From an uncultured Clostridia bacterium (GTDB taxonomy: Bacteria > Bacillota > Clostridia > TANB77 > CAG-508), in assembly GCA_944386735.1 (NCBI GenBank), contig CALXCH010000001.1:2218-66217 (forward strand): a stretch of 64,000 bases of DNA, written 5' to 3'. This document shows, piece by piece, positions 703 through 62,129 of this stretch (the stretch's first letter is position 1; every line of letters begins with the position of its first letter). Both the position numbers and the translations under genes were made by a program. The notes under the pieces are model-generated. The model ran no database searches and was not told where the DNA came from. It was given only the letters and a program-made list of their open reading frames with translations.

Positions 703-733
703 GCTGTTTTTGGGGACGGGGTCAAAAAACAGC
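703..733. repeat. Family-A hairpin repeat copy 1: GCTGTTTTT-GGGGACGGGGTC-AAAAACAGC
   Basis: Perfect 9-bp inverted repeat around a G-rich loop, starting right after the TAA stop at 700-702. Near-identical copy at 30066-30096 and an inverted variant at 33879-33913. Confidence 0.8.
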
Positions 734-29040: not shown

Positions 29041-30066
29041 ATGACATCTATTGAAAATCTAGAAAAAGAATTAAAACAAGAAAAATTGAATAGTTTATAC
29101 CTTTTATATGGTGAAGAACTATTTTTATTAGAAAACAATATAAAAAGAATAAGAAAATTATTTGGTGAAACTGTAAAAGGCATAAACTCTATTTTAATAG
29201 ATGATACAAATGTAAAAGAATTAATCCAAGATATTGAAACACCTGCATTTGGTTATGAGAAAAAACTAATTATTGCAAGAAATACTGGACTTTTTAAAGC
29301 AGAAGGAAAAAGAAAAAATAAAGAACTTAGTGATTTAAAAGATAAAATAAATGATTATTTAAATGAAAATATTGATATAATAAATCAAAGTGTTATATTA
29401 GTATTTGTGGAAGAAGATGCAGATAGTAGATTAAAATTATTTAAAACATTAGATAAACTAGGAACAGTTTGTAAATTCGATTTCCAAAAACCTGTACAAA
29501 TAGAAAAAAGAGTAAAAGCTATTTGTAAAGCTTATGAAGTAAAAATAGATGATAGTACTTTAAAATATTTTATAGAAATTTGTGGAACAAATATGCAAGA
29601 TGTAATAAATGAAATAAGAAAACTTATTGAGTATGCAGGAAAAGGTGGAGTAATTAAAAAAGAAGATGTTGATAGCTTAACAATAAAAAAACTAGAAGCA
29701 GTAATATTTGATTTAACAGATAATTTAGGGCAAAAACAAACAAGAAAAGCATTAGATGTATTAAAGAATTTGATTTATAATAAAGAGCCAATACAAAGAA
29801 TTTTAGTTATGTTATATAATCATTTTAAGAAACTATATTTCTTAAAATTAGCAATTAGATATAATAAAGATATTGTAACTTCATTAAGTTTAAAACCAAA
29901 TCAAACTTTTCTAGTAAACAAATATAAAACACAATCTAAATATTTTACAGAAAAAGAATTAAAAGAAGTTTTGCAAGCATTAAGAGATTTAGATGTAAAT
30001 TATAAGAATGGCCTAATAGACATACAAGTGGGCTTAGAAGCAATTCTTTGTAATTATTGCTCATAG
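29041..30066 (+). CDS. holA: DNA polymerase III subunit delta
   Basis: N-terminal LYLLYGEELFLLE, typical of HolA. 341 aa. Confidence 0.8.
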   Translation: MTSIENLEKELKQEKLNSLYLLYGEELFLLENNIKRIRKLFGETVKGINSILIDDTNVKELIQDIETPAFGYEKKLIIARNTGLFKAEGKRKNKELSDLKDKINDYLNENIDIINQSVILVFVEEDADSRLKLFKTLDKLGTVCKFDFQKPVQIEKRVKAICKAYEVKIDDSTLKYFIEICGTNMQDVINEIRKLIEYAGKGGVIKKEDVDSLTIKKLEAVIFDLTDNLGQKQTRKALDVLKNLIYNKEPIQRILVMLYNHFKKLYFLKLAIRYNKDIVTSLSLKPNQTFLVNKYKTQSKYFTEKELKEVLQALRDLDVNYKNGLIDIQVGLEAILCNYCS

Positions 30067-30096
30067 CTGTTTTTGGGGACGGGGTCAAAAAACAGC
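30066..30096. repeat. Family-A hairpin repeat copy 2 (identical to 703-733), overlapping the holA TAG stop
   Basis: 31/31 nt identical to copy 1. Confidence 0.8.
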
Positions 30097-31228: not shown

Positions 31229-33799
31229 ATGTATTTATTTAATAGGATAACGGTAAATCCACAATTACCAAAAAGAATAGAAAAATTATCAGTGATAGCT
31301 AATAATTTATGGTGGTCTTGGAATACAGAATTCTTAAGACTATTTCAAAGAATGGATAGAGATTTGTGGGAAGTATCAAATAAGAACCCAATCAAGTTTT
31401 TAAAACATGTGTCACAAGAAAAATTAGAGGATGTAGCAAAAGATGTTACATTTTTAAAAGAGTATGACAAAATAGTAGAAGAATTTGAAGGATATATAAA
31501 TAGTAGAAATACATGGTTTAATAAAATGTATCCAGAAGAAAAAGGAGATTTAATAGCATATTTCTCAGCTGAATATGGATTAGACCAAACTATTCCTATT
31601 TATTCAGGAGGACTTGGAATATTATCAGGAGACCATTTAAAATCAGCAAGTGATTTAGGAATTCCCCTTGTTGCTGTAGGATTATTATATAAAAATGGAT
31701 ATTTTAATCAAAAAATAGATGGAAATGGAAATCAACAAACAGAATATAATGATATAGATTTATATGATTTACCAATAAACCCTGTAAAAGATGAAAATGG
31801 TGATGACTTAATAATATTTGTAAAATTTCCAAAAAGAAGATTATATTTAAAAGTATGGAGCATAAATGTAGGAAGAGTAAAACTATATTTATTAGACTCA
31901 GATATTGAAAAAAATAATCCAGAAGATAGAGATGTAACACTAAGGCTTTATGGTGGAGACCAAGAAATGAGAATACGCCAAGAAATAGTTTTAGGACAAG
32001 CGGGAGTAGAATTACTTACAAAATATTTAAAACTAAATCCAACAGTATATCACATGAATGAAGGACATTCTGCATTTTTAACATTAGAACTTATGAAAAA
32101 CATAATAAAAGAAAAAGAAGTATCATTTGAAGTAGCAAAAGATATAACAAGTTCAAAAACAGTATTTACAACACATACACCAGTACCAGCAGGAAATGAT
32201 ATATTTCCGCTAGATTTAGTAGAAAAATATTTCAAAGACTTCTGGCCAAGATTAGGATTAACAAGAGAAGAATTTTTAAGGCTTGGAATGAAACCGGGAA
32301 AAGATTTAGACAATGGCTTTAATATGGGAATATTAGCACTAAAAATTGCGGGAAAGAAAAATGGAGTAAGTAAACTGCATGGAGCAGTATCAAGAGAACT
32401 ATTTGGAGATGTATGGCCAAATATAGCGGCAAATGAAGCTCCAATAGGATATGTAACAAATGGAATACATACTTGTTCATGGCTTGCACCAAGAATGAAA
32501 GAATTATTTAATAAATACCTAATACCATATTGGCAAGATAATATGCATAAAGACCAAATATGGGAAAAAATAAGAAATGTGCCGGATGAAAAAATATGGC
32601 AAATACATAATGATAGAAAAATAAAATTATTAAGATTAGTAAAAGATAATACATATGAAAGATTAAGACGTTCAGGATATAGCTATGAAGATATTAATGA
32701 AATAATATCAAAATTAAACCCAAATGCATTAACAATAGGATTTGCAAGAAGATTTGCAACATATAAAAGAGCAACATTAATATTTAAAGACTTAGAAAGA
32801 ATAACACAAATAATAAACAATAGTGAAAGACCAGTACAAATAATATTTGCAGGAAAAGCACATCCAGCAGATAAAGAAGGACAAGATTTAATAAGGTATA
32901 TTCATCAAGTATCAATGATGCCACAATTTAAAGGAAAAATATTCTTACTAGAAAACTATAATATAGCAATGTCAAGATATTTAGTAAGTGGAGTAGATGT
33001 ATGGTTAAATAACCCAAGAAGACCAATGGAAGCATCAGGAACAAGTGGACAAAAAGCATCAGTAAATGGAGTAATAAACTTTAGTGTACTAGATGGTTGG
33101 TGGGCAGAAGGATATACACAAACCAATGGATGGACAATAGGAAGTAACCAAGAATATGAATCATATGAAGCACAAGATCAAGCGGATAGTCAAAGTTTAT
33201 ATAGAACATTGGAAGAAAAAATAATACCAACATTCTATGATAGGGATAAAAACGGAATGCCAACAAAATGGATACAAATCATGAAAAACTCCATAATAAC
33301 AACAGGAGGAAAATATAGTACATCAAGAATGCTTGTAGACTATACAAAAGATTATTATATGCCACTATGTAAGTTAACAAAAAAATATTACCAAGATATA
33401 GATAATGTAGCAGCATTTAACTCATGGAAAAAGGACTTGTACACAAACTGGAAAGATGTAAAAATAAGACAAACAGAAGAAGACGCAGATAATATAACAA
33501 TAGACGCTGGAAATAAAATAGAAGTAGGTTGTGAAGTAGAACTTCCAAATATAGATGTAAATAATGTAAGTGTAGAAGTTTATTATGGCAAAATATTAGA
33601 AAATGGAATAGTAGAAAACGTAAGTATAACGCCAATGCAATTAACAGAAAAAGATGAAGAAACAAGAAAATATTATTATACAGCAAAAATAGAATTAACA
33701 ACTGGTGGAAATTATGGTTATACATTTAGAGTAATGCCAAAACATGAAATGATATTAGAGCCAGCAAACTTAGACTTAATAAAATGGGTAACAAAATAA
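31229..33799 (+). CDS. glgP: Alpha-glucan (glycogen/maltodextrin) phosphorylase, long GT35 type
   Basis: 856 aa with PLP-binding region (GTSGQKASVNG) and GT35 motifs. Confidence 0.85.
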   Translation: MYLFNRITVNPQLPKRIEKLSVIANNLWWSWNTEFLRLFQRMDRDLWEVSNKNPIKFLKHVSQEKLEDVAKDVTFLKEYDKIVEEFEGYINSRNTWFNKMYPEEKGDLIAYFSAEYGLDQTIPIYSGGLGILSGDHLKSASDLGIPLVAVGLLYKNGYFNQKIDGNGNQQTEYNDIDLYDLPINPVKDENGDDLIIFVKFPKRRLYLKVWSINVGRVKLYLLDSDIEKNNPEDRDVTLRLYGGDQEMRIRQEIVLGQAGVELLTKYLKLNPTVYHMNEGHSAFLTLELMKNIIKEKEVSFEVAKDITSSKTVFTTHTPVPAGNDIFPLDLVEKYFKDFWPRLGLTREEFLRLGMKPGKDLDNGFNMGILALKIAGKKNGVSKLHGAVSRELFGDVWPNIAANEAPIGYVTNGIHTCSWLAPRMKELFNKYLIPYWQDNMHKDQIWEKIRNVPDEKIWQIHNDRKIKLLRLVKDNTYERLRRSGYSYEDINEIISKLNPNALTIGFARRFATYKRATLIFKDLERITQIINNSERPVQIIFAGKAHPADKEGQDLIRYIHQVSMMPQFKGKIFLLENYNIAMSRYLVSGVDVWLNNPRRPMEASGTSGQKASVNGVINFSVLDGWWAEGYTQTNGWTIGSNQEYESYEAQDQADSQSLYRTLEEKIIPTFYDRDKNGMPTKWIQIMKNSIITTGGKYSTSRMLVDYTKDYYMPLCKLTKKYYQDIDNVAAFNSWKKDLYTNWKDVKIRQTEEDADNITIDAGNKIEVGCEVELPNIDVNNVSVEVYYGKILENGIVENVSITPMQLTEKDEETRKYYYTAKIELTTGGNYGYTFRVMPKHEMILEPANLDLIKWVTK

Positions 33800-33834
33800 A
33801 AGTACTTAAATATGTTGCTTTTTCAGGACTTGAT

Positions 33835-33870
33835 TAAAAAAATACATCTCAAATAAATGAGGTGTATTTT
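33835..33870 (+). terminator. Terminator AAAAAATACATCTCA...TGAGGTGTATTTTT
   Basis: 10-bp stem followed by a T-run after glgP. Confidence 0.7.
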
Positions 33871-33878
33871 TATATTAT

Positions 33879-33913
33879 TCAGCTGTTTTTTGACCCCGTC
33901 ATGAAAAACAGCT
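33879..33913. repeat. Family-A hairpin repeat copy 3 (inverted/variant loop GACCCCGTCATG)
   Basis: CAGCTGTTTTTT...AAAAAACAGCTG stem. The loop is the reverse complement of the GACGGGGTC core. Confidence 0.7.
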
Positions 33914-34024
33914 GAATTAAAATTTGAAATTAATAATAGATGTAACTTGAAAAGAAAATTATTATATGCTAGTATTTAATATGTAAAACAAAGGAAAATG
34001 TAAATAAAATAGGAGGAAAATGAA

Positions 34025-42774: not shown

Positions 42775-42849
<75 letters not shown>

Positions 42850-43821: not shown

Positions 43822-44179
43822 ATGGGGATGAAATGGTTTCGACATAATACTAGAAGTATAGATTGCAAGTAGTGGATGGTCGCTTTGGCCACTTAAAAAA
43901 AGCGAAAGTAAATATAAACGCTGATAACGAAGAATTAGCATTAGCTGCCTAAGTTGCGGCTACGCTTTACTAAAAAGTCCCACCTTTTTAGATAAAGTGT
44001 TATAACAGTGGGAAACGAAGCTACTTTTGCTTTTAAAGTAGTAGGTATTTTAAAAAGCTATATTTTAATAAAACCTGTTTGTTGGTGTTATTAAAATGAA
44101 TAAAATAAACAAACTAAACTTGTAGATATCTATGTGGAAGGTATTGTGGACAGGAGTTCGACTCTCCTCATCTCCACCA
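43822..44179 (+). ncRNA. ssrA: tmRNA (SsrA), tag reading frame GCT GAT AAC GAA GAA TTA GCA TTA GCT GCC TAA (ADNEELALAA)
   Basis: 5' GGGGATG and 3' GGACAGGAGTTCGACTCTCCTCATCTCCACCA tRNA-like ends. Internal tag ORF at 43926-43958. Terminator hairpin follows. Confidence 0.9.
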
Positions 44180-50296: not shown

Positions 50297-50372
50297 GCCA
50301 AAATAGCTCAGTTGGTAGAGCAACGGATTCGTAACCCGGAGGTCAGCAGTTCGATTCTGCTTTTTGGCACCA
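50297..50372 (+). tRNA. tRNA, most likely Thr (anticodon CGU), 76 nt with encoded CCA
   Basis: GCCAAAATAGCTCAGTTGGTAGAGCAACGGATTCGTAACCCGGAGGTCAGCAGTTCGATTCTGCTTTTTGGCACCA. Acceptor, D and T arms are perfect. The anticodon stem has only 3 WC pairs. Has its own promoter and terminator. Confidence 0.65.
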
Positions 50373-59465: not shown

Positions 59466-59542
59466 TAAAAAATAGACAAAAAATAAATGAAAAAAGAATA
59501 AAACAAACATAAAAAATCCACCATATAATTAGGTGGATTTTT

Positions 59543-59881
59543 ATGTTTTTTGATAAAATAAAGAGAAAGAAAAAAGAAGAAAAAGAAGAAGTGAAAAAAA
59601 CCAGAGAAAAAATAAGTATATTAAATAAGTCAATAGATCATTTAAATAAAGTTCTTCAAGAAGGAAATTTTGTAGAACTTGCTTATTTATTAGGAAATAG
59701 AAAAGAAGTATTTATAAGAAATTTTTTTGCAGGGATATCAAGAGGGATTGGTATAGGAATAGGAGTAACAATAATTACTGCAATTCTTGTAATGATTCTT
59801 CAAAAGATAGTAACATTAAATATACCAGTAATTGGAGAATATATATCAGACATTGTAGAGATAGTTCAAAAAAGCAGATGA
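59543..59881 (+). CDS. Small membrane protein (112 aa)
   Basis: Basic N-terminus, one or two TM helices, RBS-less but tightly placed after the terminator. Confidence 0.4.
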   Translation: MFFDKIKRKKKEEKEEVKKTREKISILNKSIDHLNKVLQEGNFVELAYLLGNRKEVFIRNFFAGISRGIGIGIGVTIITAILVMILQKIVTLNIPVIGEYISDIVEIVQKSR

Positions 59882-59911
59882 GACAAAAGGGAACAGGGCT
59901 TTTTTGTCTCA
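59879..59911. repeat. G-loop hairpin variant: TGAGACAAAA-GGGAACAGGGC-TTTTTTGTCTCA overlapping the TGA stop
   Basis: 9-bp stem with a loop resembling the family-A loop. Confidence 0.6.
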
Positions 59912-59970
59912 AAAATAGTGCATAATTAGATTTACTATGTTATAATTTAAGAAAAAAAGAAGGTATAGAT

Positions 59971-60843
59971 ATGGAAGAATTAAAAAAAGAAGATATAAAA
60001 AATATATTTCCTAAAAGAGATGAAAATTCAAATAAAGGAAATTTTGGTTATGTAGGAATAATGGGAGGATGCATAGAATATTCAGGAGCTGTTAAGCTTG
60101 CAAACTTAAGTAGTTCTGCTTTAACATCAGGAGCTGGTGTTGTAAGACTTATAGTACCGAAAGAAATAGCAAGTGGTGTTATGCCGTATCTATTAGAGCA
60201 AACATTGTTTACAATTGAAAGTAAAGATGGACATATGTTATTTAATGAAGAAGAAATAGATAAATCTTTAGAAAAATTAAAAGCCTTATCAATAGGTATG
60301 GGATGGGGTGAAAGTAAAGATAATGAGAAAATACTTAGTTACATATTAGAAACAAAAGATATACCAATTGTAATAGATGCAGATGGTTTAAATACCTTAG
60401 CTAAAATGGATAAAAGTATCTTAAATAGAACTAAGTCTAAAGTAATATTAACACCACATCCAAAAGAATTTGAAAGAATAAGCGGTTATGATTTTGAAGA
60501 TATTAAAAGTAATCCACAAGAACTTGCAGTTAAGTTTGCGAAACAATATGATGTTATTTTATTACTTAAAGGGCATACTACAATTGTAACTAATGGAGAA
60601 GAAGGCTATTTAGTAAAAAGAGGATGCGCAGGTATGGCAACAGCAGGAAGCGGAGATGTTTTATCAGGGGTTTTAGTGGGTCTTCTAGGATATAATGAGC
60701 CAACGGTTTTAACAATATCAGCAGGAGCATATTTAGCAGGTTTAGCAGGAGAGTTAGCAGAAAAAGAATTAAATGATATTTCTATGAAAGCATCTGATAC
60801 AATATCTAAAATACCAGAAGCAATAAATGAAATAAGAAAATGA
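59971..60843 (+). CDS. ADP-dependent NAD(P)H-hydrate dehydratase (YjeF C-terminal domain family)
   Basis: Carbohydrate-kinase-like fold motifs (GGMGWGE, TPHPKEFERI, GSGDVLSG). 290 aa. Confidence 0.7.
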   Translation: MEELKKEDIKNIFPKRDENSNKGNFGYVGIMGGCIEYSGAVKLANLSSSALTSGAGVVRLIVPKEIASGVMPYLLEQTLFTIESKDGHMLFNEEEIDKSLEKLKALSIGMGWGESKDNEKILSYILETKDIPIVIDADGLNTLAKMDKSILNRTKSKVILTPHPKEFERISGYDFEDIKSNPQELAVKFAKQYDVILLLKGHTTIVTNGEEGYLVKRGCAGMATAGSGDVLSGVLVGLLGYNEPTVLTISAGAYLAGLAGELAEKELNDISMKASDTISKIPEAINEIRK

Positions 60844-60874
60844 GACAAAAAAGCCCCGTCCCTCAAATGTCTCA
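60841..60874. repeat. G-loop hairpin variant: TGAGACA-aaaaaGCCCCGTCCCtcaaa-TGTCTCA overlapping the TGA stop
   Basis: 7-bp stem. The loop contains the reverse complement of GGGACGGGGC. Confidence 0.6.
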
Positions 60875-60905
60875 AAAAAAGAGTTCGATTTTGAACTCTT
60901 TTAAA
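60875..60905. terminator. Bidirectional terminator AAAAAGAGTTC-gatttt-GAACTCTTTT
   Basis: Perfect stem flanked by A- and T-runs between convergent genes. Confidence 0.7.
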
Positions 60906-60908
60906 CTT

Positions 60909-62129
60909 TTATATTAATTTATTAAATACTTTTTTACCTTTTTTAAGAATTGCATATCCGTCTTTGAAATCTTTATCTGATAATTGGTAGTTTGTATCTG
61001 TAACTTTTTCATCATTTAGAGTTATACCACCTTGGTTGATAAGTGTTCTTGCTTGTCCTTTAGAAGGAGCCATGTTGCACTTTATAATTGCATCTAAGAT
61101 TGAAATATTTCTATCTTCTAATTTAGTAGTAGGCATGTTATCTAAGTTACCTTGTCCACTAAATAATGCATTTGATGCTTCTTCAGCTTTTTTAGCTTCT
61201 TCTTCACCGTGAACTAATTTAGTAATTTCATATGCTAGAATTTTTTTAGCATCATTTATTTTTTCATCTTTAAGGCTTGCAAGTTCTTTTATTTTTTCAA
61301 TAGGTAAGAAGGTAAGCATTTTTAAAACATTTTCTACGCTATCATCTTCAACATTTCTCCAATATTGGTAAAATTCATAAGGAGAAGTTTTGTTAGGGTC
61401 AAGCCATAAAGCACCTTTTTCAGTTTTACCCATTTTTTTACCTTCTTTAGTTGTAAGAAGTTTAAATGTTAAACCAAAAGAATCGTCTTTACCTATTTTT
61501 CTAATTAGATCAACTCCACCTATAATATTAGACCATTGGTCATTTCCACCCATTTCTAACTTACAACCATATTCATTATATAAATGTAAGAAGTCATAAG
61601 ATTGCATAAGCATATAACTCATTTCAAAAAATGTAAGTCCTGTTTCTAGTCTTTGTTTATAACATTCAGCAGCAAGCATCTTATTAACAGAAAATAGGCT
61701 ACCAATTTCACGTACAAAATCAACAAATTTTAAATCTAAAAGCCAATCTGCATTATTTACTATTATTGCTGCATTTTCACCTTCAAAACTAACAAATTTT
61801 TCAACTTGTTTTTTAATACAAGCAACGTTATGGTCAATTTCTTCACGAGAAAGCATTTTTCTCATATCTGTTTTACCAGAAGGGTCACCAATTGTAGCAG
61901 TACCACCACCAACTAATATAATTGGTCTATGTCCACATTTTTGCATATGAGATGCAACCATTAGTGAAACAAAATGACCAACATGTAAACTATCAGCAGT
62001 AGGGTCTATACCAATATAAAAAGAAATTTTTTCTTTTCCTAAAAGTTCTTTTAATTCTTCTGGGTGAGTAATTTGTTCAATGTAACCTCTTCTTTCAAGT
62101 ATGTCTATAACATTTTCCATAAAATTCAA
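60909..62129 (-). CDS. tyrS: Tyrosine--tRNA ligase
   Basis: HIGH-class motif (SLHVGHFV), KMSKS-like KMGKT and a C-terminal S4 domain. 406 aa. Confidence 0.92.

Follow-up and report, generated by a model that had tools for sequence, protein, structure and literature searches.

The DNA analyzed here is a stretch of 64,000 nucleotides from an uncultured Clostridia bacterium (contig CALXCH010000001.1, positions 2,218 to 66,217 of the forward strand), hereafter the window, whose GC content is 25-30% and whose GC skew is positive throughout. Toward one end of the window, an open reading frame (ORF) with the Pfam domain DUF5665 (59543-59881) is followed by a Carb_kinase ORF (59971-60843), which converges with a tRNA-synthetase ORF. 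Directly behind the DUF5665 and Carb_kinase ORFs lie two hairpins with a G-rich core, B1 and B2, which are the subject of this report. The first three bases of B1 are the TGA stop codon of the DUF5665 ORF, and the first three + strand bases of B2 are the TGA stop codon of the Carb_kinase ORF. An earlier reading of this DNA from its letters alone (the sequence-only reading) had described both hairpins as opening with the stop codon of the upstream gene, and its sequences, coordinates and two ORF ends proved exact. The features at this locus are as follows.

59879..59911, + strand (G-rich core on +): B1, a type-B repeat copy, TGAGACAAAA-GGGAACAGGGCTT-TTTTGTCTCA
60841..60874, - strand (G-rich core on -): B2, a type-B repeat copy, TGAGACA-AAAAAGCCCCGTCCCTCAAA-TGTCTCA
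60877..60902, no strand assigned: a bidirectional hairpin resembling an intrinsic terminator, between the convergent Carb_kinase and tRNA-synthetase ORFs

The terminator-like hairpin is separate from the repeat and marks its right-hand context; it is kept in L012, which has no B2 (labels such as L005 and L012 denote fetched contigs or loci of relatives that were compared with the window). The reverse complement of B2, TGAGACATTTGA-GGGACGGGGC-TTTTTTGTCTCA, is essentially B1. Thus, B1 and B2 are a single element in two orientations, with a common stem and no mutual covariation. B2 represents the type-B form in which T-runs flank the core on both sides. B1 folds as RNA with -14.8 kcal/mol (z -5.5), while B2, whose stem has 7 bp and whose loop has 20 nt, is weak (-7.2 kcal/mol on the + strand, -11.5 on the - strand). 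The pattern TGAGACA-N15-25-TGTCTCA was observed twice in the window, compared to 0.00 in 100 shuffles, and GGGACGGGG was observed three times, compared to 0.00 in shuffles, so that a chance origin is excluded; the 7-mer TGAGACA alone was not enriched in the window (6 observed versus 6.85 expected). The loop common to B1 and B2 had been equated with that of another hairpin type, type A. The core of the GGGAC(G/A)G type is indeed common to B1 and B2, far beyond chance, but the exact match to the type-A loop GGGGACGGGG extends to only 8 of 10 positions in B1 and 9 of 10 in B2. The proposed covariation of the stems holds between the two families and, within type A, between genomes, but not between B1 and B2, which share their stem.

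Type A carries the core of type B on a different stem. Its copies in the window were located by an exhaustive list of hairpins together with a scan for G-runs, which brought the total to five repeat copies in 64 kb (three of type A and two of type B), every one of them between ORFs.

703..733, + strand: A1, a type-A repeat copy, GCTGTTTTT-GGGGACGGGGTCA-AAAAACAGC, beginning directly after the TAA of the ORF 22-702
30066..30096, + strand: A2, a type-A repeat copy overlapping the TAG of the ORF 29041-30066
33877..33917, - strand (core on -): A3, a flipped type-A repeat copy with a 14-bp stem and a partly decayed loop
33814..33841, + strand: the decayed left partner of A3, GTTGCTTTTTCAGGACTTGATTAAAAAA, which lacks 13 nt compared to L012
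33838..33871, no strand assigned: the spacer of the A3 doublet, a hairpin resembling a terminator, also found between the two copies in L012 and L005

A1 and A2 are identical over 32 nt (AGCTGTTTTTGGGGACGGGGTCAAAAAACAGC). A3 is the right-hand member of an old doublet (33814-33917) behind an ORF that ends at 33799; this doublet is orthologous to doublets in L012 and L005, and its G-copy has decayed in the window. The orthologous positions are 19995-20125 in L005, 18150-18290 in L012 and 33795-33925 in the window. The doublet of L005 aligns with that of L012 in reverse complement only, thus the spacer between the inverted copies was flipped between species. The copies of the window are 31-41 nt long, with fold energies of -7.2 to -19 kcal/mol and z of -3.9 to -8.4. 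No Rfam family matched the repeats, either in the whole window at the gathering threshold or in the region 59800-60950, which holds B1 and B2, at E<=1; the only Rfam matches in the window were a tmRNA (43824-44179, 191.7 bits) and two tRNAs (42779-42849 on the - strand and 50297-50369 on the + strand).

A collection with one genome per species was scanned with the pattern GGGACGGGGTCAAAAAA, which leaves the left flank unconstrained, and at least 102 stretches matched. Among the matches listed, to which the statements of this paragraph on individual copies refer, about 85 are in metagenome-assembled genomes (MAGs) of 25-33% GC labelled uncultured Clostridia or Clostridium sp. (the sets BRZ_*, Lapin-*, SRR*_bin and ABMPRH_46_1). 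Each of these low-GC copies is a hairpin of the form xxTGTTTTTT-core-AAAAAACAxx, whose free left flank contains a T-run and pairs with the right side through its outer arm. The 16 matches in unrelated GC-rich genomes have no stem and serve as an internal control. A Fusobacterium origin, which a GC content of 27% had suggested, was rejected because the matches place the repeat in these Clostridia MAGs. Several MAGs hold at least 13-18 copies each. The outer stem pairs are genome-specific yet complementary (GATG/CATC, GGTG/CACC, GCTG/CAGC and ACTG/CAGT). At the stem pair 6-34, A-T is found 45 times, C-G 24 times and G-C 17 times, and the Watson-Crick fraction is 0.78, compared to 0.35 (maximum 0.47) with partners shuffled; the pairs 5-14 are 78-100% Watson-Crick over 112 unique type-A copies. 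This covariation lies largely between genome-specific subfamilies. At least 24 inverted type-A doublets were found, all in one order, namely a G-core copy, a unique AT-rich spacer of 20-50 nt and a C-core copy. The stem foot of type A reads GATG, GGTG, GCTG or ACTG and that of type B reads TGAGAC; the conserved asymmetric motif lies in the loop.

In relatives of the window's genome, the repeats flank a transposase gene. In L060, the 857-bp interval between two inverted repeat copies contains a 259-aa ORF. A Y1_Tnp gene between inverted copies of the hairpin of its own genome was found in L060, L082, L120, L126, L132, L134, L136, L214 and L216, that is, at nine fetched loci from eight lineages; L123 has the gene with a repeat on one side. 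The flanked proteins are 249-287 aa long and extend about 100 aa beyond the Y1 domain. They match Pfam PF01797 (Y1_Tnp) with 38.6-52 bits (52 in L060), and their best NCBIfam match is REP_Tyr_transpos, the model for transposases associated with repetitive extragenic palindromic (REP) sequences (REP-associated tyrosine transposases, hereafter RAYTs), with 56-78.5 bits (78.4 in L060), compared to 21.6-25 bits for the NCBIfam model IS200 (21.6 in L060), whose cut-off is 55. A profile built from eight of the proteins found a single match in the PDB, 4ER8, the TnpA-REP of E. coli (E = 1.8e-5). The HUH motif and the region Y-I-H-x-N-P-x-K-A are invariant in the flanked transposases, and one source labels a homologue RayT. 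In the C-terminal extension, only weak matches to helix-turn-helix (HTH) models were seen, namely HTH_19, HTH_3 and HTH_31 (E = 0.006-0.2) in L136 and L216.

The RAYT gene is single and syntenic (PRK, RNHCP, RAYT, Peptidase_U32) in four species, with orthologues that are 70-100% identical, and these orthologues are flanked by the loop variant of their own genome, GGGACGGGGTC, AGGACGGGGTC or GGGACGGAGCA, which recurs elsewhere in the same contigs. The hairpin varies together with the transposase, as the loop variants GGGACGGGGTC, AGGACGGGGTC, GGGACGGAGCA and GGGGACAGAGG follow its lineage. Homologues from other genera (49-53% identity) are likewise flanked by variants of their own, with a GATG stem in L082, an ACCTG stem in L132, the loop GGGGACAGAGGAA in L129 and GGGTGTTTTT-GGGGACAGACCTT in L134. 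RAYT relatives from diverse metagenomes (L168, L138, L182, L203 and L155) have very different stems with the core GGGGACGG(T)TC or GGGGACAG beside the gene. RAYT is also carried by relatives that are 80-93% identical to the window at the nucleotide level.

Several other features were noted around these transposase genes. Directly behind the RAYT gene of L132 (5762-5966), a G-core copy, a spacer, a C-core copy, the same spacer and another C-core copy form a cluster that resembles a bacterial interspersed mosaic element (BIME). At 24-35 nt before the RAYT start in L060, L120, L126, L132, L135, L214 and L216, with variants in L123 and L136, there is a conserved box that reads (A/T)GGGGCAAAT(T). 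In both transposase lineages (see below), this box follows the upstream hairpin and precedes the start codon; it may be an operator or promoter element and is absent from the window. L029 encodes a third Y1_Tnp paralogue (26-889), 38% identical to the first RAYT lineage (RAYT-A), after which two direct repeats CCTGTCCCAAA(G/C)TTGCCATTTA (895-960) contain the complement of GGGACAGG on a TTGCCA-type flank. Perfect palindromes that resemble terminators, each comprising an A-run, TTGCCA...GGGACGGTCCC...TGGCAA and a T-run, with an apex like the repeat core, were seen in L039 (about position 390), L068 (about 2622) and L018 (about 5643); these palindromes could represent a third type of stem, or else ordinary terminators whose apex is similar.

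Type B is also a multi-copy, doublet-forming family, and it is found in several genera. In the window's genus, copies of the form TGAGAC.../...GTCTCA number three in L015, two of which form a doublet directly behind a gene with an Ldh domain (lactate/malate dehydrogenase family), and two in L040. In other genera, the form is TGAGACAG-TGGGGACAGTCC-TTTTCTGTCTCA, with doublets in L052 and L088. A second RAYT lineage, RAYT-B, which is 39% identical to the first, has inverted flanking hairpins in L136, L214 and L216, either TTAAGACAA-TGGGACGGGGTTT-TTGTCTTAA or TTTAGACA-TAGGGACGGAGCTTT-TGTCTAAA. These hairpins have an AGACA/TGTCT stem and a T-run 3' of the core, as in B2, and B1 aligns with 17 other type-B copies, those flanking RAYT-B included, at a mean column identity of 77% over all 18. 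Given that the RAYT-B hairpins share stem, T-run and alignment with type B, we assign type B, from these sequence likenesses, to the repeat of the second transposase lineage. At 6 of about 11 independent type-B sites, an ORF of at least 112 codons terminates with the first TGA of the element, thus the overlap with stop codons is recurrent.

The Carb_kinase protein has many relatives of 77-100% identity, encoded on contigs that all come from gut-type metagenome assemblies. B1 is kept at the orthologous site in L005, L009 and L012 (Carb_kinase 86-92% identical), where the TGA is always provided by B1 and the loop has drifted to GGGACGGGCC, GGGGACGGGCC and GGGGACGGGGA. In L015-L017 (Carb_kinase 80% identical), the element at the B1 site has the opposite orientation. 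This reversed element, found behind the DUF5665 gene at about 9880-9913 of L015, L016 and L017, nevertheless has the unusual loop end ...GCC that is seen in L005 and L009; either a flip in situ or an independent insertion could account for it. B2 is absent from the orthologous site in L012/L014, L005, L009 and L015. L012/L014 have the same convergent neighbor and the same terminator there, and 30 nt of unrelated AT-rich sequence with a TAG stop codon take the place of B2. Several type-A copies are stable at orthologous sites. It should be noted that B1 and B2 bracket the whole Carb_kinase gene (59879-60874) in the inverted order of G-core and then C-core that is also seen around RAYT genes; as B2 is missing in relatives, this bracketing is probably a coincidence.

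With good confidence, we interpret B1 and B2 as non-autonomous palindromic repeat copies, REP/REPIN-like, that belong to a clade of Y1 (HUH) transposases of the RAYT/TIRYT type in uncultured low-GC gut Clostridia. The hairpin probably serves as a ligand, and its most likely partner is the transposase, which would bind it as single-stranded DNA, given that the repeat families flank a RAYT/TIRYT-type Y1 gene in relatives. The recognition signature of this clade would be the G-rich core, GGGAC(G/A)G, which AT-rich stems present in their apical loop and which would take the role of the GTAG head of proteobacterial REPs, while the lineage-specific stems would need only to pair. By analogy with E. 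coli TnpA-REP and IS200/IS605, the hairpin would be extruded in single-stranded DNA at replication, and the single-copy chromosomal transposase would bind it and would cut and rejoin the strand. Copies would thereby be spread or maintained in extragenic space, mostly right behind stop codons. We infer that the repeats are bound, cleaved and mobile and that the window's own genome still encodes the transposase, and the same applies to any host function that the repeats may have. The sequence-only reading had argued for selection on a hairpin with a specific loop. The occurrence of the same core on unrelated stems with their complementarity kept, and its conservation well past the two copies, agree with that view, but the likely ligand is a transposase rather than an RNA chaperone or RNase. 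Its further claim, that such selection rather than simple repeat spread accounts for the hairpins, was not supported, as by the refuting condition of that reading itself copies within each type share their stems, and they reach tens per genome, come in genome-specific variants, form inverted doublets and flank a transposase gene.

Several points weigh against this interpretation. The action of the transposase clade on such hairpins is a prediction. No RAYT gene was found within the 64-kb window by tblastn, and no RAYT-B of the window's own genus was found in about 1 Mb of fetched loci, RAYT-B being found only in other low-GC lineages. The scores of the flanked proteins with REP_Tyr_transpos stay just under the equivalog cut-off of 80. 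The canonical GTAG/CGTC head at the stem foot is absent in both types, where CGTC occurs only within the complement of the loop. The doublet spacers are unique sequences, unlike the body of a REPIN, which is copied as a whole. B2 is the sole case of presence and absence, with no clean empty site that would mark the ends of the element, and B1 occupies the same site in species whose Carb_kinase proteins are 80-92% identical in amino acids, with no sign of recent movement. Type B may survive in the window's genus as a relic, in keeping with its few copies, its drifting loops and the stability of its sites.

The positions of the copies relative to genes were determined from mechanically called ORFs among the matches listed. 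Of 47 copies with the G-core in sense, 36 have their start -6 to +14 nt from the upstream stop codon; of 35 with the C-core in sense, 21 have their end 10-25 nt ahead of the next ATG. A strict rule by which single copies would have the G-core in sense at stop codons and the C-core in sense at ribosome-binding sites was rejected, as the association of orientation and position among single copies (23:3 versus 8:5; Fisher p = 0.09) is suggestive only. In doublets, the orientation rule follows from the symmetric geometry when a short intergenic gap is filled. Among stem mismatches, G.T (19) and A.C (21) are equally frequent, thus there is no sign of RNA-level selection on the stem, and such selection was rejected as a candidate.

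The positions of the copies raise the question of whether the host has taken them over as a kind of gene punctuation, in which the copy behind a gene gives or abuts its stop codon and the inverted partner lies just 5' of the next ribosome-binding site. We regard this as a doubtful idea. If true, the pair would bracket the intergenic spacer, often with a terminator, and would give each cistron a defined 3' and 5' hairpin, or else a long duplex for RNase III; the spacer could be flipped by recombination between copies, as between L005 and L012; and the layout of operons and the ends of mRNAs in an entire lineage of low-GC Clostridia would be shaped by a RAYT/TIRYT system.

An explanation in which the transposase link is secondary is that the hairpins are a host RNA element, i.e., a structure of the 3' untranslated region or between cistrons that acts as a 3'-end stabilizer, as a translation-termination or coupling device, or as a site for an RNA-binding protein or RNase reading the G-rich loop. 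We consider it unlikely. The copies do lie at transcribed positions by stop codons, the TGA serving as the stop codon at the 6 of about 11 type-B sites mentioned above, the hairpins are stable as RNA, and B1 persists at one site in different species. Doublets have their G-core copy against the stop codon and the end of their C-core copy 10-25 nt short of the next ATG, but the order of a doublet is symmetric under reverse complementation and hence uninformative on the direction of transcription, and in single copies the association of orientation with position is weak. Also at odds with an RNA element are the near equality of G.T and A.C mismatches, the lack of an Rfam match in the scans described above, the occurrence of both orientations in the sense of the mRNA and the flipped B1 site in L015. 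Moreover, such an element would leave unexplained why the same hairpins are found around transposase genes in every examined lineage. An RNA role that is added to that of a transposase substrate may still exist.

It is less probable still that the hairpins are host DNA sites, either hairpins or cruciforms bound by a nucleoid, replication or segregation factor, or inverted copies that serve as recombination sites for flipping the spacer. The spacer that was flipped between L005 and L012 and the flipped element at the B1 site of L015 are what recombination sites would give, although 20-50 bp leaves very little spacer for inversion by a recombinase. For REP/BIME elements of E. coli, binding by several proteins is reported (PMC2817692), but the sole candidate binding protein here is the flanked transposase, and the copies of the window show no strand bias relative to the replication-associated GC skew (G-core on the + strand in three copies and on the - strand in two). 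That ordinary intrinsic terminators or chance palindromes happen to have similar G-rich loops is hardly credible, as the location at gene ends and the weak terminator-like match that a consensus scan found on the - strand inside B2 stand against AT-rich stems, no T-tract behind B1, a separate proper terminator immediately after B2, zero motif occurrences in shuffles and identical 17-mers in tens of copies per genome.

Three further candidates were rejected: a miniature inverted-repeat transposable element with a conserved body, because doublet spacers are unrelated within one genome; invertible promoter switches, because a spacer of 20-50 bp is not long enough, with a single flip seen between species; and polar motifs of the KOPS or Chi type, because of the lack of strand bias in the window (3 versus 2). 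Two observations concern neighboring sequences. A perfect 17-bp inverted repeat, AAACATAAAAATCCACC-ATATAATTA-GGTGGATTTTTATGTTT, lies at 59505-59548 of the window, and its 3' arm holds GGTGGA, which resembles a ribosome-binding site, and the ATG (59543) of the DUF5665 ORF; it could be a terminator for the upstream UPF0182 gene, a hairpin that masks translation, or both. In several contigs (L005, 16506-20004; L012, 14652-18150), the gene for the DNA polymerase III alpha subunit is divided into two neighboring ORF calls of 528 and 617 aa. The gene may truly be split, or a frameshift or an assembly feature may recur there.

To our knowledge, REP/REPIN-RAYT systems have been characterized almost only in Proteobacteria, where the repeat is marked by a GTAG head, and RAYT-like proteins with a C-terminal extension (TIRYT, subclass 2.1) are widespread but poorly defined in the substrate that they recognize. 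The clade described here displays many natural substrates at once, in which the core GGGAC(G/A)G is constant and the stems vary by transposase lineage and genome. This leads to a hypothesis for substrate recognition in which the loop would provide the sequence specificity and the stem would contribute structure alone. In low-GC gut MAGs, annotation pipelines could use this pattern to recognize such repeats, which recur at gene ends and are able to provide the stop codon there; assemblies could also break at repeats of this type.

Among known systems, the REP/REPIN/BIME elements with RAYT (TnpA-REP) of Enterobacteria and Pseudomonas were reportedly described by Nunvar in 2010, Bertels and Rainey in 2011, Ton-Hoang in 2012 and Messing in 2012 (PDB 4ER8). 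Like these, the Clostridia repeats are imperfect palindromes of 30-35 nt that are extragenic and mostly lie behind genes, with tens of copies per genome, inverted doublets and a variant for each lineage, and a single-copy, syntenic and vertically inherited Y1 transposase gene lies between the repeats. They differ in that the stem foot has no GTAG/CGTC head and the conserved asymmetric part is the loop, that the stems are AT-rich rather than GC-rich, that the doublet spacers are unique and often contain a terminator, and that the protein falls just under the NCBIfam cut-off for RAYT. We did not find a description of a variant like this one, in which the loop of an AT-rich hairpin holds the signature motif. 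With IS200/IS605 and the ORF-less derivatives of such elements (palindrome-associated transposable elements, PATEs), the Clostridia system shares an HUH/Y1 transposase and would share its recognition of subterminal hairpins in single-stranded DNA and insertion without target duplication. In contrast to the multi-copy transposase of IS200/IS605, the one found here is encoded by a single, syntenic gene, the repeats stand alone as units of about 33 nt instead of forming the ends of a 0.7-2-kb element, and the score with the NCBIfam IS200 model remains far from its cut-off (21.6-25 versus 55 bits).

The RAYTs of earlier surveys are single-copy, vertically inherited and almost always flanked by REPINs; their Group 1 occurs in Clostridia, and highly abundant flanking 16-mers were found only for Groups 2 and 3 (Bertels et al., 2017; PMC5581495). 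TIRYTs are RAYT-like genes between inverted repeats that share the motif GGGGWSAS, and among these repeats some are self-complementary and some belong to families of moderate abundance that include dimers and clusters (Di Nocera et al., 2013; PMC3733652). The same paper sorts REPs into GTAG- and CGTC-headed families, and the words "Firmicutes" and "Clostridi" are absent from its text. TIRYTs were later equated with subclass 2.1, which comprises long proteins with a C-terminal HTH-like domain, and no REP-like structures were found near subclass 2.1 genes (Quentin et al., 2018; PMC6006769). TIRtron/TIRYT is probably the subclass 2.1 of TnpA-Y1 with a C-terminal HTH. In the Clostridia repeats, GGGGWSAS is fitted exactly by GGGGACAG in L134, L129 and the type-B copies of L052, L088 and L068, at 7 of 8 positions by GGGGACGG of type A in the window and L132 and by GGGAACAG of B1, and at 6 of 8 by AGGGACGG of B2. 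In addition to this motif, which is on the coding strand upstream of the gene, the Clostridia system resembles TIRYT/TIRtron in its proteins of about 255 aa with a Y1 domain and a C-terminal extension of about 100 aa, in which HTH matches are weak, in the inverted repeats around the gene, and in the dispersed repeat families with dimers, clusters and some self-complementary members. It differs from TIRYT/TIRtron in the location of the motif in the apical loop of an AT-rich hairpin of 9-14 bp, in its host lineage, uncultured low-GC Clostridia, and in having two transposase lineages with different stems and one core. From this comparison of sequences, the Clostridia repeats most probably belong with the TIRYT repeats and would function like REP/REPIN elements.

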